A stretch of 10,219 bases of DNA from a virus, in UHGV virus genome UHGV-0275486; one strand, 5' to 3'. The notes beneath the pieces are model-generated. The model saw nothing but the letters and a program-made list of their open reading frames with translations. It searched no databases and had not been told where the DNA came from. The position numbers and the translations under genes were made by a program. The stretch's first letter is position 1. Every line of letters begins with the position of its first letter. Of this stretch, positions 1-10,219 are shown piece by piece.

Positions 1-117
1 AGCTTACAGGTGGCCATTCGTGGGACAGTATCCCTGACAGCCTACAAAACGCAATTGAAGAACGCGAGGCATCGTCTTAACGAGGCACCGAGGCGTCGCA
101 TTCTTCAGATGGTTCAA
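1..117 (+). CDS. 3-prime end of an upstream gene (partial, product not recognised)
   Basis: Frame +1 is open from the window edge to TAG at 115-117 (..RRRILQMVQPLS*); the other two + frames hit stops within 80 nt. Start is outside the window and no motif is recognised. Confidence 0.3.
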
Positions 118-587
118 CCCTTAAGTTAGCGCTTATGGGAGAAATCCCCGCAACCTCTGATGTATTATGCATCCTCAACGCAGCCACAGTTAACCTGATT
201 GGCGGGTTTATTTCATCTGTAAATATATTTATAAAAATAATGCCCACGCACAGCATAAAACAAAAAGTATTACAGATAAAAAAGGAACGTAATGTGCAGA
301 TTTGTTGTTTTCCATATTTACTCACCTTAATATGATTAACCCTGATAGGGTTGTTATTTCAGCGGTTTTCAAATGAGATATTATGGTGATCTGGCAGATT
401 TGCATAACATTAAAATTTAATTTGTTTAACCGCTTTTAATAATAAGCGTTGTTTGTATCCCAGCAATCTGTTGTTTGGTTTTTATTCCATTAAGGTGGGG
501 CTTTACACTGGAGCCAGTTTATTTATACTTCATACGTCAGCCTGAACAACTGGCATCTGCTGCGCTGCGCCATCGAGAGATTAAGAA

Positions 588-1187
588 ATGGCGCATATAC
601 AACTGGTCAAACAAACCTCTTCCGGATTACTTCTCCCGGCGACGCCGGAGAGTTGTGATTTTCTGCATCAAATCAAAATAGGCGAGTGGATACACGCAGA
701 CTTTAAGCGTGTGCGTAACTACGCATTCCACAAGCGTTTTTTCAAACTCCTGCAACTGGGATTCGATTACTGGACTCCGGTCGGTGGGGCGATCACGCCA
801 CGCGAACGAGAACTGCTGTCTGGTTTCGTTGATTACCTGTGCGAATCAGTTGGTCGGGAACACACGCCAGCCCTGAGTGAGGCCGCAGAGCAATATCTGA
901 ATACAGTTGCGACACGCAGAACCCGGGATACGGCATTGCTAAAGTCGTTTGAGGCTTTTCGCGAGTGGGTAACCATTCAGGCTGGATTTTACACCGAACA
1001 TTTTTATCCGGACGGTAGCCATGGGCGTCGGGCGAAATCCATCGCGTTTGCGAATATGGACGAAACCGAGTTTCAGCAGGTTTATAAATCTGTTCTGAAT
1101 GTGCTGTGGAACTGGATTCTGTTCCGTAAATTCTCCTCTCAGGAGGAAGTTGAAAATGTGGCCGCACAACTACTGGAGTTTGCGTAA
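588..1187 (+). CDS. lambdoid nin-region protein, DUF1367-like (family assignment from memory)
   Basis: 199-aa ORF with ATG start and protein-like composition. Its TAA stop overlaps the next gene's ATG (TAATG at 1185-1189), indicating translational coupling. It sits directly upstream of a YbcO-like gene and Q, as in lambdoid nin regions. Confidence 0.7.
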   Translation: MAHIQLVKQTSSGLLLPATPESCDFLHQIKIGEWIHADFKRVRNYAFHKRFFKLLQLGFDYWTPVGGAITPRERELLSGFVDYLCESVGREHTPALSEAAEQYLNTVATRRTRDTALLKSFEAFREWVTIQAGFYTEHFYPDGSHGRRAKSIAFANMDETEFQQVYKSVLNVLWNWILFRKFSSQEEVENVAAQLLEFA

Positions 1188-1477
1188 TGGTGAATTTACG
1201 TAAAGCGGCTAAAGGCCAGATGTGCCAGATCAGAATCCCTGGCTACTGCAATCACAATCCCGAAACCTCTGTGCTGGCGCATTACAGGCTGGCGGGGACG
1301 TGCGGAACAGCGACAAAACCACACGATATGCAGGCAGCGATTGCCTGTAGCTCATGCCACGATTTAATCGACGGGCGGGTAAAAACCAGCGATTACACCA
1401 AAGAAGAATTACGCCTGATGCATGCAGAAGGTGTTTTTCGCACACAAGAAATCTGGAGAAAGGAAGGTTATTTATGA
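1187..1477 (+). CDS. YbcO-like DUF1364 protein (Cys-rich, putative zinc-binding nin-region protein)
   Basis: 96-aa ORF (MVNLRKAAKGQMCQIRIPGYCNHNPETSVLAH...IACSSCHDLIDGR) with paired Cys motifs and the same length as the E. coli DLP12 YbcO protein, which it closely resembles from memory. Start overlaps the upstream stop; its own stop overlaps the next start (ATGA at 1474-1477). Confidence 0.75.
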   Translation: MVNLRKAAKGQMCQIRIPGYCNHNPETSVLAHYRLAGTCGTATKPHDMQAAIACSSCHDLIDGRVKTSDYTKEELRLMHAEGVFRTQEIWRKEGYL

Positions 1478-2016
1478 TTTACCCAACAAATACAGGCAAA
1501 AGCGGGGAACACCTTCGTCTCACCACGCTGGAAAGTGTCTGGATTCAGGGAAAACTGCGCATGTGGGGGCGCTGGTCGTATATTGGCGGCGGTAAGACGG
1601 GAAATATGTTTAACCAGTTGCTGGCATCCAAAAAATTGACGAAAACAGCCGTCAATGAAGCCCTGCGCAGGATGAAAAAAGCGGGAATAGAGAAACCTGA
1701 GCTGGAAGCGTTTTTGCGAGAGATGATCAATAGCAAGCAAAAGACCTGGCTGGCGCATTGTACTGATGCAGAGGCGTTATGTATTGATAGAGTCATAAGT
1801 GAGGTGCTGGCAAAACACCCAGGATTGATTTGTATCCTCCGGCAACGATATGAAGGGAGGGGGATGACTAAGCGTAAAATGGCTGAATTGCTGAATGATG
1901 CACATCCTGAGTGGTGTTTTAGCACATGCGAAAAGCGAATTGCTAATTGGTTAGCCGTTGCTGAATATGCCCTGTATATTCCCATGCGAGAATCATTTGC
2001 TCAAAAAATAGCTTGA
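1474..2016 (+). CDS. late-gene antitermination protein Q-like (QuuD/Phage_antitermQ type)
   Basis: 180-aa ORF starting at ATG 1474, preceded by GGAGAAAGGAAGG as ribosome-binding site and overlapping the upstream stop. Contains an RWG-W-type motif (KLRMWGRWSY) recalled from QuuD-like Q proteins. It is the last early-operon gene before a terminator, tRNAs and the lysis cassette. The 220-aa extension from 1354 lies inside the preceding gene and is not used. Confidence 0.65.
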   Translation: MIYPTNTGKSGEHLRLTTLESVWIQGKLRMWGRWSYIGGGKTGNMFNQLLASKKLTKTAVNEALRRMKKAGIEKPELEAFLREMINSKQKTWLAHCTDAEALCIDRVISEVLAKHPGLICILRQRYEGRGMTKRKMAELLNDAHPEWCFSTCEKRIANWLAVAEYALYIPMRESFAQKIA

Positions 2017-2099
2017 TTTTTTACGCATAAATTGCTTCAATTCCGGTATGCTTCGCAAAGCTGTATCGCGAGGCGAACCAAGCGCATGAACTTTACCAG

Positions 2100-2128
2100 A
2101 ACCCGCCATTGAGCGGGTTTTGTTGTTT
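2100..2128 (+). terminator. intrinsic terminator downstream of Q (candidate tR-prime-like element)
   Basis: 7-bp stem AACCCGC/GCGGGTT (2100-2106 and 2113-2119) with 6-nt loop CATTGA, followed directly by TTGTTGTTT. Confidence 0.5.
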
Positions 2129-2193
2129 CTGGGGGGGCATTTCGTTAAATGAAGCTGTGTTGTGCGCAATTAGCTAATAACACGAATCGTGAA

Positions 2194-2203
2194 TGTATAT
2201 AAT
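2194..2203 (+). promoter_or_regulatory. candidate -10 element (TG-TA-TATAAT) upstream of the tRNA pair
   Basis: Perfect TATAAT at 2198-2203 with TG at 2194-2195. No good -35 hexamer at 16-18 bp spacing, so this is a weak call. Confidence 0.2.
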
Positions 2204-2325
2204 GCGCTTGTTCCTTCGATGGTGTATTCGAATAACGGATTACTGAATACAGCTATCCCATTAAGGGAACACCGCCATCTTTTAAGTGGTAGGTGTGAGA
2301 TTCGATACCTCGGTGGCGGTTCTGT

Positions 2326-2401
<76 letters not shown>

Positions 2402-2404
2402 TAT

Positions 2405-2479
<75 letters not shown>

Positions 2480-2754
2480 GCATTTGAAATAAGCCTTATT
2501 GTATTGCAGCACTGGCGTATTTTTATTACGTGGGAGCAGGTTGTTTCGAAAAAGCATTCTGTTCTCTGGCTATGATTTGAGGCCAGGTGTAGCCTCAGTG
2601 CTGATTTTTTTACGGCAGCAGAATGGTGCATTATCGGTGGAGATTTTGTATTTCCTGGCAGGGCCGGTGATGTGCCATCCCGATGTTGTAAACATCGCTA
2701 AAAATGACATTGAGATTAATCATATACTAAGCAAAACCTGGAAATACATCCTTT

Positions 2755-2780
2755 ACCGCCTCCACCGGGCGGTTTTTTTT
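2755..2780 (+). terminator. intrinsic terminator
   Basis: Stem ACCGCC (2755-2760) / GGCGGT (2768-2773) with loop TCCACCG, then a run of eight T (2773-2780). Confidence 0.55.
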
Positions 2781-3103
2781 ATTCTGAACCCTAAAAAAAG
2801 AAACACGGACACTGATAATGCCCGTGTGGCAATGCCATGTAAGTTAGCGATGAATATGGCGCAAAAAAAGCGCGGCCGTCGGATTAACGCCGCGGGACAA
2901 AGTCCATGAAGAATCATAAGTATTGGCCCCCTTCTGGGGACATGTTCATACTACTAAGCTTCAGAAGTGGTTTAAATCATCAAATTAACCTTAATTTTCG
3001 ATAAGTCTTATTTCATTTCTTTGCGCCACATCTGGCGCGCATCAAATAACGCCACGCAAAGGGCATCTGCGGATGCCGGTGCTTTTGACGGGGTGTTTTT
3101 TAC

Positions 3104-3125
3104 GGGCCGCTGGTGGCCATTTTTT
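3104..3125 (+). terminator. small intrinsic terminator-like hairpin just upstream of the holin gene
   Basis: GGCC(G)/(T)GGCC stem (3105-3109 with 3114-3118), 4-nt loop, then A and six T (3120-3125). It lies about 40 nt before the holin start and could alternatively be a structure regulating holin translation. Confidence 0.4.
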
Positions 3126-3165
3126 GTTTCCATTACACAGCGCCCGCATCTGCGAGGTGGGGGTT

Positions 3166-3381
3166 ATGAAATCCATGGATAAGTTAACAACGGGTGTCGC
3201 CTATGGCACCTCCGCAGGCAGTGCTGGCTACTGGTTTTTACAGTTGCTCGATAGAGTCACGCCCTCACAGTGGGCAGCAATAGGTGTGCTGGGTAGTCTG
3301 GTGTTTGGCCTGTTGACGTATCTGACAAATCTTTATTTCAAGATTAAAGAAGATAAGCGTAAGGCTGCACGGGGAGAGTAA
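3166..3381 (+). CDS. S: class II holin, phage 21 S-type pinholin, with dual-start motif
   Basis: 71 aa from ATG 3166 ([29 protein letters not shown]...[11 protein letters not shown]), close to the phage 21 S protein as recalled and the same length. Met1 and Met4 give the antiholin/holin dual start. GAGGTGGGGG precedes the start. The upstream in-frame extension from 3073 runs across the terminator hairpin and is not used. Confidence 0.9.
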
Positions 3382-3385
3382 TTCA

Positions 3386-3730
3386 ATGACTCAAAACTAT
3401 GAACTGATTGTGAAAGGGATCCGCAATTTTGAGAATAAAGTTACGGTAACTTTAGCGTTACGGGACAAAAAACGCTTTGACGGTGAAATTTTAGACCTGG
3501 ACATCTCGCTGGACCGTGTTGAAGGTGCCGCGCTGGAGTTTTATGAGGCAGCAGCCAGAAGAAGCATCAGACAGGTCTTCCTGGATGTTGCTGCCGGGTT
3601 ATGTGAAGGGGATGAGCAGTCACCGGAAAAGCGCCCCATAATTTTAGAGGCGCAGGGTGTGTGGATAACCTACAAAGGAAAACTGCCGGGAAGAATTACT
3701 GGTTCACTGAAGACTCCGCCGAAATGGTAA
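3386..3730 (+). CDS. DUF1327 / YdfR-like protein inserted between holin and endolysin
   Basis: 114-aa ORF starting 5 nt after the holin stop, with GGGGAGAG 7 nt upstream of the ATG. Hydrophilic protein resembling, from memory, the Qin prophage YdfR family, which also sits between holin and endolysin genes. Confidence 0.6.
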   Translation: MTQNYELIVKGIRNFENKVTVTLALRDKKRFDGEILDLDISLDRVEGAALEFYEAAARRSIRQVFLDVAAGLCEGDEQSPEKRPIILEAQGVWITYKGKLPGRITGSLKTPPKW

Positions 3731-3968
3731 TTTCACCAGCATATTTTTCTTCCAGTAATACCGCCAGCCACTTGAAAGAATTTTGTTGTTGCTGGGACCA
3801 TTTGGGGTTGAGTGATTCAAGCTGGAGCGATGCCAGTGTTGGTTGCATTTGTTCCTTGGGAATTGAGAATGCCAGATATGAAAATGCGACAGTAAGGGCA
3901 TTTACATCATCCCGAAGCCTGGAAATGCAGTCGAGCAACTCCTGTAGAGAAATGGTGCTATTGTCCAT
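3696..3968 (-). CDS. hypothetical protein on the antisense strand inside the lysis cassette
   Basis: 90-aa ORF with a strong ribosome-binding site on the minus strand (AGAGAGGA, 7-nt spacer, ATG). Composition is helical and protein-like, unlike the overlapping + strand ORF 3661-3993. Its 3-prime end overlaps the DUF1327 gene by 35 nt. No homologue recognised. Confidence 0.4.
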   Translation of the reverse strand: MDNSTISLQELLDCISRLRDDVNALTVAFSYLAFSIPKEQMQPTLASLQLESLNPKWSQQQQNSFKWLAVLLEEKYAGEITISAESSVNQ

Positions 3969-4073
3969 AAATAATCCTCTCTATTGTATTTAACTATTCC
4001 TTGCCTGATTCAACAGGCCGGGACAGATAAACATATCCAGGGTTCAGAAACCGATAAATCCTGATAAATATCC

Positions 4074-4607
4074 ATGAACGCAAAAATCAGATACGGCCTG
4101 TCGGCTGCCGTTCTGGCACTGATTGCCGTCGGTGCGCCTGCGCCTGATATTCTCGACCAGTTTCTGGATGAAAAAGAAGGTAACCACACAACGGCATACC
4201 GCGATGGTTCCGGTATATGGACCATCTGTCGTGGTGCCACAATGGTGGATGGTAAGCCCGTCATACCGGGAATGAGGCTGTCGAAGGAAAAATGCGACCA
4301 GGTTAACGCTATTGAACGTGATAAGGCGCTGGCATGGGTGGAGCGCAATATTAAAGTACCACTGACCGAACCACAGAAAGCGGGTATAGCGTCATTTTGT
4401 CCCTATAACATTGGCCCCGGTAAGTGTTTCCCGTCGACGTTTTATAAGCGGCTGAATGCCGGTGATCGTAAGGGTGCATGCGAGGCGATTCGCTGGTGGA
4501 TAAAAGATGGTGGGCGCGATTGCCGCATACGTTCAAATAACTGCTATGGACAGGTTATTCGTCGTGACCAGGAAAGCGCATTAGCCTGTTGGGGGATAGA
4601 TCAGTGA
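4074..4607 (+). CDS. R: SAR endolysin (lysozyme with N-terminal signal-anchor-release domain)
   Basis: 177 aa. The N-terminus ([17 protein letters not shown]) is a weakly hydrophobic Gly/Ala-rich segment typical of SAR domains. It is followed by the lysozyme catalytic spacing E-x8-D-x5-T ([16 protein letters not shown]). A SAR endolysin is the expected partner of a pinholin. Confidence 0.9.
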
Positions 4608-5068
4608 GCAGAGTCGCCGCGATTATTTATGCTCTGGTTATCTGCATCATCGTCTGCCTGTCATGGGCTGTTAATCATTACCGTGATAACGCCACCGCCT
4701 ACAAAGAGCAGCGCGACAAAAATGCCAGAGAACTGAAGCTGGCGAACGCGGCAATTACTGACATGCAGATGCGTCAGCGTGATGTTGCTGCGCTCGATGC
4801 AAAATACACGAAGGAGTTAGCTGATGCGAAAGCTGAAAATGATGCTCTGCGTGATGATGTTGCCGCTGGTCGTCGTCGGTTGCACATCAAAGCAGTCTGT
4901 CAGTCAGTGCGTGAAGCCACCACCGCCTCCGGCGTGGATAATGCAGCCTCCCCCCGACTGGCAGACACCGCTGAACGGGATTATTTCACCCTCCGGGAAC
5001 GACTGGTAATGATGCAGGCCCAACTTGAAGGTGCTCAGCAATACATAACCGAACAGTGTTTAAAGTAA
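4604..5068 (+). CDS. Rz: i-spanin Rz
   Basis: GTG start at 4604 overlapping the endolysin stop (GTGA). The N-terminus ([29 protein letters not shown]) is a transmembrane segment, followed by a coiled-coil region. Close to lambda Rz as recalled. The ORF track's TTG at 4589 is an upstream in-frame alternative. Confidence 0.9.
4824..5009 (+). CDS. Rz1: o-spanin Rz1 (lipoprotein embedded in the +1 frame of Rz)
   Basis: 61 aa ([24 protein letters not shown]...[15 protein letters not shown]) with a lipobox ending in Cys and a proline-rich body. AAGGAG lies 7 nt upstream of the ATG. Lies wholly within Rz, as in lambda. Confidence 0.85.
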
Positions 5069-5205
5069 AATCTTAACTACAATATGATTCATTTTGATGA
5101 TTGTTTCATAAGGAACAGTGAAGTAAGATCTAAGAGGAGTTAAATTTTATACAGTATAATCATAATATTGCAGCAAGGTGGTTATAATTGAAAGAATATT
5201 TAGAT

Positions 5206-6663
5206 ATGAATACATCTCATGTAAGAGTTGTTACTCATATGTGTGGGTTCCTGGTTTGGCTCTATAGTCTTTCAATGTTGCCACCAATGGTTGTAGCATT
5301 GTTTTATAAAGAAAAAAGCCTGTTCGTTTTCTTTATAACTTTCGTTATATTTTTTTGCATTGGTGGCGGAGCGTGGTATACAACTAAGAAATCTGGCATT
5401 CAATTACGTACCCGTGATGGGTTTATTATAATTGTAATGTTTTGGATTTTGTTTTCTGTTATTAGTGCATTCCCTTTATGGATTGACTCAGAACTTAATT
5501 TAACGTTCATTGATGCTCTGTTTGAAGGGGTTTCTGGAATAACAACAACAGGAGCAACTGTAATTGATGATGTTAGTTCATTACCTCGGGCATATTTGTA
5601 CTATCGGTCACAGTTAAATTTTATAGGTGGTTTAGGAGTTATTGTTCTGGCGGTTGCTGTATTGCCATTATTGGGTATTGGTGGTGCAAAGCTTTATCAG
5701 TCAGAAATGCCGGGGCCATTTAAGGATGACAAACTCACTCCCCGCCTGGCCGATACGTCACGGACACTGTGGATAACTTATTCTTTATTAGGTATTGCTT
5801 GTATTGTCTGTTATAGACTTGCAGGAATGCCTTTGTTTGATGCTATTTGTCACGGGATTTCCACAGTTTCGCTTGGTGGTTTCTCAACTCATAGCGAGAG
5901 TATCGGATATTTTAATAACTATTTGGTTGAGCTGGTGGCTGGTTCTTTTTCCCTGCTATCGGCTTTCAACTTCACTCTTTGGTATATTGCTATTAGCAGG
6001 AAAACGATAAAACCTTTAATCAGAGATATTGAACTTCGTTTCTTTCTGTTAATAGCCTTAGGGGTGATCATTGTTACCTCTTTCCAGGTCTGGCATATAG
6101 GTATGTATGACTTGCATGGAAGTTTTATTCATTCGTTTTTTCTTGCCAGCTCCATGCTCACTGATAATGGTTTAGCTACGCAGGATTATGCAAACTGGCC
6201 CACGCACACGATAGTGTTTTTGCTGTCGTCAAGTTTCTTTGGGGGATGTATAGGTTCAACTTGTGGTGGAATTAAGTCACTTCGATTTCTTATACTTTTC
6301 AAACAAAGCAAACACGAGATAAATCAGCTTTCTCATCCCAGAGCGTTGTTGAGTGTAAATGTAGGAGGGAAGATAGTTACAGATCGTGTAATGAGGTCTG
6401 TATGGAGTTTCTTTTTTCTTTATACTCTCTTCACGGTGTTTTTTATACTGGTGTTAAATGGTATGGGATATGATTTTCTTACATCATTTGCAACAGTGGC
6501 TGCATGTATTAATAATATGGGATTAGGTTTTGGGGCTACTGCATCGTCATTCGGAGTGCTTAATGACATTGCAAAATATTTAATGTGCATAGCTATGATT
6601 CTTGGTCGCCTTGAAATTTATCCTGTTATTATATTGTTTTCAGGTTTTTTTTGGCGCTCCTAA
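5206..6663 (+). CDS. trkG: Trk-system potassium uptake protein TrkG (TrkH/TrkG family membrane protein)
   Basis: 485 aa from ATG 5206 (491 aa from TTG 5188). Multiple transmembrane segments and the conserved TrkH-family motifs (GITTTGATV, LYQSEMPGP, GGCIGSTCGGIK). Markedly AT-rich compared with its flanks. Matches the trkG gene of the K-12 Rac prophage as recalled, in the same position after Rz/Rz1. Confidence 0.9.
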   Translation: MNTSHVRVVTHMCGFLVWLYSLSMLPPMVVALFYKEKSLFVFFITFVIFFCIGGGAWYTTKKSGIQLRTRDGFIIIVMFWILFSVISAFPLWIDSELNLTFIDALFEGVSGITTTGATVIDDVSSLPRAYLYYRSQLNFIGGLGVIVLAVAVLPLLGIGGAKLYQSEMPGPFKDDKLTPRLADTSRTLWITYSLLGIACIVCYRLAGMPLFDAICHGISTVSLGGFSTHSESIGYFNNYLVELVAGSFSLLSAFNFTLWYIAISRKTIKPLIRDIELRFFLLIALGVIIVTSFQVWHIGMYDLHGSFIHSFFLASSMLTDNGLATQDYANWPTHTIVFLLSSSFFGGCIGSTCGGIKSLRFLILFKQSKHEINQLSHPRALLSVNVGGKIVTDRVMRSVWSFFFLYTLFTVFFILVLNGMGYDFLTSFATVAACINNMGLGFGATASSFGVLNDIAKYLMCIAMILGRLEIYPVIILFSGFFWRS

Positions 6664-6749
6664 TATATGGCTGATTTATAATTGTGAGTTTAATATTATA
6701 TTGACTCACTCATTGATCCAATACCTAACTTTACCAGCAACACCTCCGC

Positions 6750-6784
6750 CCCCAGTAGCACTGGCTGCTGGGGTGCGTTTTATT
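6750..6784 (+). terminator. possible terminator downstream of trkG
   Basis: CCCCAG (6750-6755) / CTGGGG (6768-6773) stem with a 12-nt loop, followed by TGCGTTTTATT. The T-run is interrupted and the loop is long, so this is a weak call. Confidence 0.3.
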
Positions 6785-6800
6785 CATAAAGCAAGGCTGT

Positions 6801-7592
6801 ATGAGCGAGAAATTAAAGATAGTCTATCGCCCATTACAAGAATTGTCACCGTATGCGCACAACGCCAGGACGCACAGTACTGAGCAGGTGGCACAACTGG
6901 TAGAAAGTATTAAGCAATTCGGCTGGACTAATCCGGTGCTGATTGACGAAAAGGGCGAAATTATTGCGGGTTACGGTCGTGTTATGGCGGCTGAAATGCT
7001 CAAAATGGATTCTGTTCCGGTCATTGTTCTGTCTGGCCTGACGGATGAGCAGAAAAAGGCGTACCGCCTGGCAGATAATCGCCTGCCGATGAATGCTGGC
7101 TGGGATGAAGATCTGTTGCGGATGGAGCTGTCGGACCTAATCAATGCTGATTTTGATGTCTCCCTGACAGGCTTCATCCCGACAGAAATTGATGAACTGT
7201 TGACGGATGTTTTGCCCGGTACAGGAAATGAGGAGGAGCCGTATACGACGAAAATTGATACGCCTGTTTATGAGCCGTCGGGCGGTAAACCGGATATCAG
7301 TGAACTGTACGACGATACGAAAACTCAGGAGCTGATCAGCCGGATACGTTCGGCGTCCCTTGAGCCTGATATTGAGAAATTCCTCCTGTGTGCGGCAGAA
7401 CGTCACACGGTGTTTAATTTCAGTAGAATTGCGGACTATTACGCTCACGCCCCCTCTGAAATTCAGTGTTTTTTCGAGGAGTCGGCGCTGGTGATCATTG
7501 ATTATCAGCAGGCTATTGAAAATGGATTTGTCCGGATGACGCAGCGCATGGTGGAGATCATGCATGGTGGTGAGGAGGAGGAATATGCGTGA
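6801..7592 (+). CDS. ParB/Srx-like N-terminal domain protein with acidic C-terminal region
   Basis: 263 aa. The N-terminus (PLQELSPYAHNARTHSTEQVAQLVESIKQFGWTNPVLIDEKGEIIAGYGRVMAA) has the ParB-like nuclease-domain pattern, including the Gly-x-x-Arg core. The C-terminal half is acidic and ends in EEEEYA. AAGG precedes the ATG. Confidence 0.75.
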   Translation: MSEKLKIVYRPLQELSPYAHNARTHSTEQVAQLVESIKQFGWTNPVLIDEKGEIIAGYGRVMAAEMLKMDSVPVIVLSGLTDEQKKAYRLADNRLPMNAGWDEDLLRMELSDLINADFDVSLTGFIPTEIDELLTDVLPGTGNEEEPYTTKIDTPVYEPSGGKPDISELYDDTKTQELISRIRSASLEPDIEKFLLCAAERHTVFNFSRIADYYAHAPSEIQCFFEESALVIIDYQQAIENGFVRMTQRMVEIMHGGEEEEYA

Positions 7593-8517
7593 TGATTTTT
7601 GCGCCTTTATTCTGACTCACGGGCGACCGGACAAAGTTCTGACTTACCGGACGTTGCGTCGTGCTGGCTATACCGGGAAAATTTTTATCGTTGTTGATGA
7701 TGAAGATAAGACACGGCATCAGTACATGGCTGAATTTGGTGAACAGGTGCTGGTGTTTTCCAAAGCCGATATCGCCAGTCGTTTTGACGAAGCCGATAAT
7801 TTCTGTGACCGCCGCTCAATTTTTTACGCCCGTAATGCCTGTTTCGACCTGGCAAAACTGGTCGGGTGTAAATACTTCATTCAGCTCGATGATGATTATC
7901 ACGAGTTCCAGTTTCGGGTGGATCGCAACTATGACCAGGCCTATTTTCCGATAAGGAAACTGGATGCGATCCTTTCTGAAATGCTGGCGTACTACGAATC
8001 AATACCTGCTCTTTCCATCGCTATGTCGCAGGGCGGGGATTTTCTTGGTGACAATGGCGGCCATGCTTCGTGGGTGAAACGCAAGGCAATGAACAGCTTT
8101 ATCTGTTCGGTTGATCGACCGTTCTCATTCATGGGGCGCATTAACGAGGATGTGAATACGTACACGAATCTCGGTCGCTGTGGTGAATTGTTTATGACGA
8201 TCGGTGCTGTCCAGTTAGGGCAGAAACAGACGCAGAAAAACAGCGGCGGAATGACCGAGCTGTATCTGGATTCCGGAACCTACGTTAAAAGTTTTTACTC
8301 CGTCATGTATGCGCCGTCGTGCGTAAAAATTTCACTGATGGGTGCCAGCCATAAACGCATTCACCATCAGGTCACCTGGAACAACGCTGCAGTAAAAATC
8401 CTTCACGAAAAATACAGGAAGAAGACACCCTGCATATCAATGGGGGTGACAAATGATTCCGTATTCGAAAGTCGAGTCTCTGGCAGCGTGCCGGATGACT
8501 GCACAACAAATCGCTGA
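7585..8517 (+). CDS. hypothetical protein with GT-A (family-2 glycosyltransferase-like) motif spacing
   Basis: 310 aa from ATG 7585, which follows GAGGAGGAGGA and overlaps the ParB-like stop (ATGCGTGA). The N-terminus has a beta-strand (CAFILTHGRPD), then IFIVVDDEDK about 30 residues later and FIQLDDDY about 55 residues after that. This matches the spacing of the DxD elements in GT-A folds such as SpsA as recalled. Function is inferred from motifs only. Confidence 0.55.
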   Translation: MRDDFCAFILTHGRPDKVLTYRTLRRAGYTGKIFIVVDDEDKTRHQYMAEFGEQVLVFSKADIASRFDEADNFCDRRSIFYARNACFDLAKLVGCKYFIQLDDDYHEFQFRVDRNYDQAYFPIRKLDAILSEMLAYYESIPALSIAMSQGGDFLGDNGGHASWVKRKAMNSFICSVDRPFSFMGRINEDVNTYTNLGRCGELFMTIGAVQLGQKQTQKNSGGMTELYLDSGTYVKSFYSVMYAPSCVKISLMGASHKRIHHQVTWNNAAVKILHEKYRKKTPCISMGVTNDSVFESRVSGSVPDDCTTNR

Positions 8518-8704
8518 CGTTCTGGATGTTGATCTGAACCGACTGAAAGAAAATCGGGAAGCAATGACAGATTTTTATGCGGCCATCCGTAAGGGCAGAG
8601 CGAAAGGTGAAGCCGAGTTACGAGCGGCATTGTTTAAGCTTGCCAGAAAAGGGGATGCCTTTGCTCTGCGCGAACTACTCAGGGTGGATAAAAATCAGGA
8701 CTAA
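8453..8704 (+). CDS. small hypothetical protein upstream of the small terminase (possible DNA-binding accessory protein)
   Basis: 83-aa ORF with GGGGGTGA 4 nt upstream of the ATG. Helical, basic, protein-like composition. Overlaps the end of the preceding gene by 65 nt and stops 3 nt before the terminase gene. Confidence 0.45.
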   Translation: MIPYSKVESLAACRMTAQQIADVLDVDLNRLKENREAMTDFYAAIRKGRAKGEAELRAALFKLARKGDAFALRELLRVDKNQD

Positions 8705-8707
8705 CTG

Positions 8708-9154
8708 ATGAGCAGACCGGACTGGGGGGCGTTGCAGCAGGAGTATATTGCTGAATACACCCGCTCCGGTATATCTCCGGTGGCATGGTGTGAAGCAAGG
8801 GGACTGAATTACGCAACAGCCCGTCGTTACATCAAAAAAACTCCGAAAAATGCGCAGACAGAAATGCGCAAAACTGCGCAAAAAAGTGCGCAGAAAAAAT
8901 CTGCGCAGACTGCACAAAAGCGGAACGAAAAATCTCAGGAAAAAAAGCCAGTATTCGATGCGGGCCTGAATGAGGGCGACGCGGAGGAATTTTCGTTCTG
9001 TCCCGATGATTTCGGCATTTCTGACCAGCAGGCTAAGTTTGCGATGCTTGTTGCTCAGGGTAAAAAGCCGACAGAGGCGTACCGACTATCTGGATTTTTT
9101 CAAAGGCGAGATAGGGAAAACCCATCTGGCTCAGGAGCTGTGGACGCAGATTGA
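8708..9154 (+). pseudogene. terminase small subunit, truncated at the 3-prime end and running into unrelated sequence
   Basis: The N-terminal 130 residues look like a small terminase: a helix-turn-helix-like segment (ISPVAWCEARGLNYATARRYIKK), a K/Q/A-rich linker, and the conserved [27 protein letters not shown] motif. After about nt 9097 the frame decays into an unrelated 18-residue tail ending at TGA 9152-9154. Another frame carries tail-protein J-like sequence from about 9084. Confidence 0.6.
8851..8916 (+). repeat. cluster of TGCGCA hexamers inside the small terminase gene
   Basis: TGCGCA at 8851, 8865, 8875, 8887 and 8902, plus TGCACA at 8911, spaced 9-15 bp. The region encodes the K/Q/A-rich linker. 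Confidence 0.5.
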
Positions 9155-9797
9155 TAACGGTCAGCTTGCGCCTGACCTGGCTGAAATCAGGACATCCATT
9201 ACGGATGTCAGCAATGAAATCACACAGACCGTCAATAAGAAACTGGAAGACCAGAGTGCAGCGATCCAGCAGATACAGAAGGTTCAGGTTGATACAAATA
9301 ATAACCTGAACAGCATGTGGGCCGTGAAACTGCAGCAGATGCAGGACGGACGCCTTTATATTGCGGGTATCGGTGCCGGTATTGAGAATACGCCAGCAGG
9401 AATGCAGAGTCAGGTGCTGCTGGCGGCAGACAGGATTGCGATGATTAATCCTGCGAATGGCAACACAAAGCCGATGTTTGTTGGTCAGGGTGATCAGATA
9501 TTCATGAACGACGTGTTCCTGAAACGCCTGACGGCTCCCACCATTACCAGCGGCGGTAATCCTCCTGCATTTTCCCTTACACCGGACGGGCGACTGACGG
9601 CGAAAAATGCGGATATCAGTGGCAGTGTGAATGCGAACGCCGGGACGCTCAACAATGTCACGATAAATGAAAACTGTCGGGTTCTGGGAAAACTGTCTGC
9701 GAACCAGATTGAAGGCGATCTCGTTAAAACAGTGGGCAAAGCTTTCCCCCGGGACTCCCGTGCACCGGAGCGGTGGCCATCAGGGACCATTACCTGA
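9084..9797 (+). pseudogene. C-terminal fragment of tail-tip / host-specificity protein J homologue
   Basis: From about 9084 the frame encodes sequence ([23 protein letters not shown]...[77 protein letters not shown]...) that closely matches the C-terminal region of lambda J as recalled. There is no J N-terminus, which would be about 900 aa. The frame stops at TGA 9795-9797, before where lambda J ends. Confidence 0.6.
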
Positions 9798-9835
9798 GTA
9801 TACGCCGTTTAGGGCCAACCGGGCTAATCAATAGC

Positions 9836-10219
9836 ATGCAAATGCGTTACGGCCTGGTTAAAGATGATGGCTTTATTGAGGTTTGGGCCTTCCAGCGTGC
9901 ATTTATCAACGGCGCAAAGGTTGCGGTACTGGCGCAGACGGCACGCACGGAATTATACATTCCAGACGGATTTGTTAAGCAAACCGCCGCGCCTTCTGGA
10001 TATGTTGAAAGCCCCGTTGTAAGGATTTACGACCAGTTAAACAAGCCGACTAAAGCAGATTTGGGCCTTGAAAATGCGATGCTTACAGGCGCTTTCGGTC
10101 TTGGCGGTAGCGGGATATCAACAAACGGCAAGATGAGCGATGTAGAGATCTTAAAAGCTCTGCGTGACAAAGGTGGTCATTTCTGGCGCGGTGATAAGCC
10201 GACCGGAAGCACGGCGACC
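9836..10219 (+). CDS. hypothetical protein, 5-prime part only (runs off the window)
   Basis: A different + frame from the J fragment is open from 9728 to the window end, with the first ATG at 9836 (MQMRYGLVKDDGFIEVWAFQRAF...). No strong ribosome-binding site and no recognised homologue. It may be a frame-shifted continuation of the tail-fibre region or a separate gene. Confidence 0.3.
   Translation, partial: MQMRYGLVKDDGFIEVWAFQRAFINGAKVAVLAQTARTELYIPDGFVKQTAAPSGYVESPVVRIYDQLNKPTKADLGLENAMLTGAFGLGGSGISTNGKMSDVEILKALRDKGGHFWRGDKPTGSTAT

Follow-up and report, generated by a model that had tools for sequence, protein, structure and literature searches.

Two deletion scars between terS, J and stf remnants in the late region of a Rac prophage

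Near the right end of UHGV virus genome UHGV-0275486 (10,219 nt; this whole stretch of DNA is called the window below), a reading frame resembling the start of a phage small terminase gene (8708-9154) overlaps a second frame with similarity to the tail-tip protein J of lambda (8970-9797). An initial annotation, made from the sequence alone, had taken the point where the two meet for the scar of a deletion in a defective prophage. The locus raises the question of whether two distant late genes were brought together here by loss of the DNA between them, what was lost, and whether either frame still amounts to a gene. The following features were delineated, with the evidence for each given in parentheses:

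8708..9088, plus strand: small terminase (terS) remnant, with the native start and codons 1-127 of 364 (DNA/protein alignment, Pfam, PGAP)
8970..9797, plus strand: mechanical 275-aa ORF, not a gene, made of 39 out-of-frame terS codons and the J fragment (ORF list)
9082..9088, plus strand: junction 1, block overlap (three- and four-way alignments; one BLAST block runs to 9088, the next starts at 9082)
9087..9794, plus strand: internal fragment of tail-tip gene J, 236 codons, equivalent to approximately aa 814-1045 of 1160 (BLASTP, Pfam, BLAST)
9089..9154, plus strand: out-of-frame tail of the truncated terS (terS') ORF, 21 J-derived codons and a stop (translation)
9790..9794, plus strand: junction 2, TTACC, 5-bp exact microhomology between J and stf (window aligned with J and stf of HS)
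9791..10219, plus strand: remnant of the side tail fibre gene stf, from approximately codon 414 of 1258 (BLAST, offset, translation)
9795..9797, plus strand: TGA closing the J reading frame, which is stf read out of frame (alignment, translation)

Window positions 8400-10219 were compared by megablast with 5,426 complete E. coli genomes and 50,697 phage records, and split into three homology blocks. The left block (8400-9088) corresponded to Rac-type late regions with an intact terS (99.7-99.9% identity over 689 nt), and the block to its right (9082-9794) to gene J as found in E. coli HS and numerous further strains (99.9% over 713 nt); E was 0 for both, which excludes a chance match. The two blocks overlap, with no foreign or filler DNA between them. 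Alignments of the window with intact terS (from SPF_0923 and PSS-16) and intact J (from HS and PSS-16) were made with MAFFT, and placed the crossover inside the trinucleotide CTA at 9086-9088. This microhomology is exact over 3 bp and reaches six of seven positions in the extended motif CCGrCTA (CCGaCTA vs CCGgCTA), its exact part depending on the J allele (CTA against the HS allele, TA against the PSS-16 allele). Around the join, intact terS reads ...GCGTACCGACTA|GCCGGTTATGAG..., intact J of HS reads ...GCATCCGGCTA|TCTGGATTTTTTC... and the window reads ...GCGTACCGACTATCTGGATTTTTTC..., and no more than 9 of 12 bases are common to terS and J. A 45-nt J probe found no match with three or fewer mismatches in the J of SPF_0923, so this record was used for the terS side and for gene order only. 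Alignment to intact relatives and inspection of the join for microhomology had both been proposed as checks, and their outcome confirms that the reported deletion scar is real.

The reading frames differ across junction 1, as originally described: terS is read from 8708 (modulo 3 = 2) and J from 9087 (modulo 3 = 0), and an in-frame terS-J fusion protein was rejected on these grounds. The first estimate of where J begins, near 9084, was accurate (J homology starts at 9082-9086), but the estimate that terS-like sequence continues to about 9097 was not, since the DNA homology stops at 9088. The later end is an illusion at the protein level, arising because the codons that follow the junction (CTA TCT GGA TTT, LSGF) by coincidence resemble the native ones (CTA GCC GGT TAT, LAGY).

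A second scar, absent from the initial annotation, is present at 9790-9794, where by BLAST the J block ends (at 9794) and an stf block begins (at 9790). Positions 9790-10219 were 98.8% identical to the interior of the HS gene annotated as 'prophage tail fiber N-terminal domain-containing protein'. In HS the endpoints of junction 2 fall at positions 20713 and 23021 of locus L003, and the 2,307 bp missing here comprise the last 111-115 codons of J, the whole of lom and approximately the first 413 codons of stf. The stf remnant reads open to the end of the window and has no start codon of its own within it. In the urinary isolate E. coli EcPNK006 (NZ_CP071436.1), which is 99.93% identical to window positions 565-10219, PGAP calls only a shorter stf ORF from an internal start downstream of the window ('pyocin knob domain-containing S74 family peptidase').

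Intact late regions of the same type were available from Escherichia phage vB_EcoS-683R6 (ON470595), 'Salmonella phage SPF_0923' (ON032529) and a prophage of E. coli PSS-16 (NZ_AP027713), and are colinear with and 99.7-100% identical to the window from trkG through terS codon 127. Like the window, these regions hold Q, tRNA-Thr/Gly, the lysis genes, trkG, a ParB-like gene, a gene for a TET-associated glycosyltransferase (TAGT), a small ORF and terS; unlike the window, they also carry the rest of terS, terL, portal, a P22-like capsid gene and tail genes, with a full J (1132-1160 aa), lom and a full stf, amounting to approximately 18.4 kb and 2.3 kb of additional sequence. The order in all three is trkG, ParB-like gene, TAGT gene, small ORF, terS, terL, portal (DUF4055), minor head protein, scaffold, P22-type capsid, head-tail connectors, tail terminator, tail tube, chaperone (ydaY), tape measure, M, L, K, I, J, lom and stf. 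Window positions 9088 and 9089 correspond in PSS-16 to positions 20381 and 38783, respectively, of locus L006, which gives 18,401 bp for deletion 1 in this proxy, a size that, like the exact microhomology, depends on the parent chosen, because the J fragment is closest to J from the Qin prophage of HS (99.9% DNA identity), its amino acid identity to the PSS-16 J being only approximately 91%. Relative to PSS-16, deletion 1 took out terL, portal, capsid, tail tube, tape measure, M, L, K and I, together with J codons 1-813. The large terminase, portal, head and most tail genes had been predicted to be absent, at an expected 15-20 kb, and the 18.4 kb missing relative to an intact relative agrees with that prediction. 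The 'complete genome' record ON032529 starts inside the lysis region and ends in sitABCD, uspF, ompN and nifJ of E. coli type; it appears to comprise the right-hand half of such a Rac-type prophage and adjoining host DNA, and not a complete phage genome.

The identification of the second frame as a J homologue held, with 91% amino acid identity to PSS-16 J residues 814-1045 (BLASTP) and a Phage_Tail_Tip domain (PF09327, E 2.6e-31), so that 8970-9797 does contain tail-tip sequence; its placement at the C-terminal end of J did not, as the fragment is internal. Intact J of 1132 aa has six Pfam domains (FNIII-A, Phage-tail_3, Ig_J, Ig_J_second, Phage_Tail_Tip and Ig_GpJ_C). The fragment has only the fifth of these, the central tail-tip-fibre domain, and lacks both the four that precede it and the C-terminal receptor-binding Ig_GpJ_C (PF12421); it does not show the full domain series of lambda J/TipJ, and it stops 111-115 codons short of the J stop. 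PGAP labels the same piece in EcPNK006 as 'phage tail tip fiber protein, missing N-terminus and C-terminus'. In the 275-aa ORF, the N-terminus is the +1 frame of terS and the stop was made by junction 2, and no Shine-Dalgarno-like sequence was found upstream of the ATG at 8970; this ORF is a mechanical by-product and not a gene.

The terS remnant is 99.7-100% identical in DNA to intact terS genes (1095 nt), and its 127 native residues can all be aligned with the intact PSS-16 TerS, from which they differ by a single D/E exchange. Pfam places Terminase_2 (PF03592) at aa 122-321 of the full-length homologue of 364 aa (E 1.3e-8). The 148-aa product of the terS' ORF, which terminates at the stop codon 9152-9154, gave no Pfam match and keeps only aa 1-127; the stump has lost almost the whole Terminase_2 domain. 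From its sequence, the product is to be considered a remnant of a member of this family, not a functional member, and PGAP labels the piece in EcPNK006 'terminase small subunit, incomplete, missing C-terminus'. A search of PDB with full-length TerS gave a weak match only (E 0.23), in which residues 108-158 resemble the N-terminus of a solved small terminase; this suggests, although only as a hint, that the break falls inside the DNA-binding (helix-turn-helix) motif. The possibility that the terminase is naturally short and full-length for its family was rejected, since 127 of 364 codons are left and the 364-aa form is encoded in 852 of the 5,426 complete E. coli genomes.

It is very improbable that the junction created a functional new gene, in the form of either a truncated, DNA-binding TerS or a J-domain protein encoded by the 275-aa ORF. 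The two genes are joined out of frame and the Terminase_2 core (aa 122-321) is lost, terS being broken inside the motif that aligns weakly with the small-terminase helix-turn-helix (E 0.23), even if the terS' ORF keeps its native start, its upstream context and 127 native residues and would share in transcription of the late operon. Although long and open, the 275-aa ORF has no ribosome-binding site and begins with 39 nonsense codons, and the allele is limited to one lineage, which gives no sign of selection. Just as doubtful is the idea that the 148-aa product, translated from the late mRNA that depends on Q, could attach to the pac region of incoming Rac-type phages or to a terminase partner of theirs and block packaging in a dominant-negative manner. 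If true, this would make the scar a domesticated anti-phage function instead of plain decay; the observations behind it are the intact start and upstream context only.

The element is Rac, the lambdoid prophage at ttcA in E. coli. Rac is among the most widespread prophages of this species. The window ends short of the flanks, and the identity follows from EcPNK006, because its flanks match those of K-12 Rac. On the left side, back to ttcA, EcPNK006 carries ydaV, ydaT, repressor genes, sieB, kilR, racC, recE, recT, ralR, xisR and intR, and on the right side stf and tfa remnants and a diguanylate cyclase gene, followed by uspF, ompN, nifJ, ydbJ, hslJ and ldhA. Both the Rac site (ttcA to uspF/ompN, with intR/xisR at the ttcA end) and the annotated Rac gene set (recE/recT, racC, kilR, sieB, ydaS/T/V, and trkG past the lysis genes) are thus found in EcPNK006. 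In published work, about 69% of strains carry Rac at ttcA; the K-12 copy is described as incomplete, and intact copies exist in other strains (PMC6379469).

Rac of K-12 MG1655 (b1345-b1375, at ttcA) has the same site and flanks and the same intR, xisR, recET, racC, kilR, sieB and ydaS/T/V, and like the EcPNK006/window element it holds the trkG cargo followed by ynaK and is defective by internal deletions of morphogenesis genes. The endpoints differ, however: in K-12, ynaK is joined at codon ~87 to a tail-chaperone fragment (ydaY), and a tape-measure fragment (ynaA) is joined to lomR. K-12 Rac lacks terS, J, Q, holin and lysozyme, retains of the lysis genes only the rzpR pseudogene and rzoR, and keeps a full-length stfR, whereas the window keeps Q, the lysis genes, a full-length ynaK, the TAGT gene, the terS stump and the J fragment, and its stf is truncated. 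Decay of Rac in the window's lineage and in K-12 is independent.

The explanation that we hold with high confidence is that two deletions within the Rac late region destroyed the morphogenesis module and left the remnants of terS, J and stf as pseudogenes. Deletion 1 (~18.4 kb) would have joined terS codon 127 to J codon ~814 over the 3-bp CTA overlap, and deletion 2 (~2.3 kb) J codon ~1045 to stf codon ~414 over the 5-bp TTACC overlap, in both cases out of frame. Both probably arose by RecA-independent, short-homology illegitimate recombination (replication slippage or short-homology end joining). At each junction, a short repeat found at both endpoints was retained in one copy without an insert, as judged against parents that are proxies. 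The chance of an overlap at a random junction is 0.05 for at least 3 bp and 0.005 for at least 5 bp; junction 2 therefore supports a short-homology mechanism better than junction 1, whose 3-bp overlap alone is marginally above chance. A repeat scan of 8600-10219 revealed no direct or inverted repeats flanking or hairpinning 9082-9088 or 9790-9794, and no IS element, IS end or homology of 20 bp or more was found at the junctions. Deletion mediated by an IS element, or by homologous recombination between long repeats, was rejected, as IS sequence is absent and the blocks overlap. Several smaller deletions in succession would end in a sequence identical to that left by one step per gap.

The same final sequence would also result if the tail region had been converted from another lambdoid prophage, and Rac was considered as a partner in ectopic recombination or gene conversion with a second resident prophage (for example of Qin type). 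Identity to the J and stf resident in HS Qin is 99.9% for the J remnant and 98.8% for the stf remnant, EcPNK006 has five places that match the query, and lambdoid prophages are known to swap tail genes (PMC3945230, PMC2669165). The same late module, however, moves between attachment sites as a unit, so that likeness to Qin need not mean Qin origin, and identity of just 3-5 bp at the junctions is not what homologous exchange leaves behind. Had Rac and a distant prophage exchanged DNA reciprocally, a large chromosomal segment would moreover have been deleted or inverted, whereas the host genes on both sides are in normal Rac order. We regard such an exchange as unlikely, and the scars are best read as internal deletions because host synteny is kept on both sides.

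A similar scar exists in the Qin prophage of E. coli HS (L003 18024-21046), in which a terL stump adjoins an N-terminally truncated J at L003 18401 and the genes between are gone. That scar differs from the one in the window in its prophage and attachment site, in the terminase gene involved and in its breakpoints, and its J keeps 881 codons to the natural stop, with lom and stf intact. By analogy, this suggests that terminase-to-J deletions recur in lambdoid prophages, the pools of which have been described as riddled with such deletions (PMC2669165).

Under the two-deletion explanation, the element would be unable to package DNA or build particles, its three remnants being pseudogenes, and upstream of them Q, the two tRNAs, holin, lysozyme, Rz/Rz1, trkG and the ParB-like/TAGT pair remain intact as ORFs or genes. 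The view of the element as a defective prophage is supported, with terS truncated, the J piece genuine and 18.4 kb of particle genes gone.

Among the 5,426 complete genomes, only that of EcPNK006 matched the whole stretch 8400-10219. A 401-nt probe over junction 1 was covered to at least 80% in this genome alone, and so was a probe over junction 2. GCA_029112555.1 has a draft contig, reported for six samples, that encodes the identical 148-aa terS' product and ends 34 nt past the terS' stop and before junction 2. The 34-nt junction 1 sequence was not found in a scan of one genome per species, which included one representative E. coli genome. Window positions 1-564 are unlike EcPNK006 save for a patch of 82% identity at 137-212, the counterpart stretch in EcPNK006 lying just downstream of hokD; with this differing left end, the window is a second sequence background for both scars. 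E. coli genomes are rich in repeats of J-like sequence (median of three places per genome) and the draft contig stops soon after the terS' stop, as might be expected if the junction came from a collapsed or chimeric contig over repeated prophage DNA. Such an assembly artefact is scarcely credible here: junction 1 recurs base for base in a closed chromosome, in the draft contig of six samples and in the window with its different left end, junction 2 is found in the closed chromosome and the window, and at both the blocks overlap by microhomology and unique sequence spans the join. The scar allele, which is real, is seen in more than a single sequence but only within a narrow lineage, a distribution in line with a recent, probably neutral loss.

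The case is one of textbook cryptic-prophage decay in a well-known element, the remnants of which PGAP had already flagged as pseudogenes, and it adds one more independent route by which Rac loses its particle genes; its importance beyond annotation is small. In annotation, neither the two ORFs (8708-9154 and 8970-9797) nor the 'S74 peptidase' downstream of them should count as genes, all three being remnants. The base-level junctions, with 3 and 5 bp of microhomology, could serve as markers of the lineage of EcPNK006-like urinary isolates. The retained Q and lysis cassette, with the J and stf fragments, may be a source of lysis on induction, and the retained sequences could act as recombination substrates for infecting lambdoid phages, a role shown for stfR of K-12 Rac (PMC3945230).

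Upstream of the scars, the ORFs for Q, holin, DUF1327 protein, lysozyme, Rz/Rz1, TrkG, ParB_N and TAGT are open and of the same lengths as in the intact relatives. The Q-type antiterminator (DUF1133, 180 aa) is followed by tRNA-Thr(TGT) and tRNA-Gly(TCC) at 2326-2479, between the Q gene and the holin gene as in intact Rac-type phages; a search against Rfam found these two tRNAs only and no structured RNA at the scar. The lysis region encodes a holin (Phage_holin_2_1), a DUF1327 protein, a lysozyme and Rz, with the ORF of the Rz1 lipoprotein embedded in Rz at 4824-5009. A Q and lysis region of intact appearance had been described from the start, and at the level of ORFs (Q, holin, lysozyme, Rz and Rz1) this is correct. 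Between the lysis genes and the ParB-like gene, trkG (5188-6663) has a G+C content of 33-41%, compared with 47-53% in the flanking phage genes, which fits foreign cargo inside the late operon.

Between trkG and terS, in the window as in intact Rac-type phages, stands a pair of overlapping ORFs, the first encoding a ParB_N protein of 263 aa (6801-7592) and the second a protein of 317 aa (7564-8517; 310 aa as called) with a TAGT domain (PF20691, E 3.8e-35). ParB-dependent phage dioxygenases have recently been described (PMC13229309), and the ParB_N/TAGT pair may constitute a DNA-modification module; no TET/JBP dioxygenase is visible within the window. The gene of the ParB_N protein, ynaK, is called a 258-nt 'incomplete' pseudogene by PGAP in both EcPNK006 (L001 10402-10659) and PSS-16 (L006 18094-18351), with the 263-aa ORF open. 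This call is likely due to the reference, the 87-aa YnaK of K-12, being itself a product of the ynaK-ydaY deletion in K-12.
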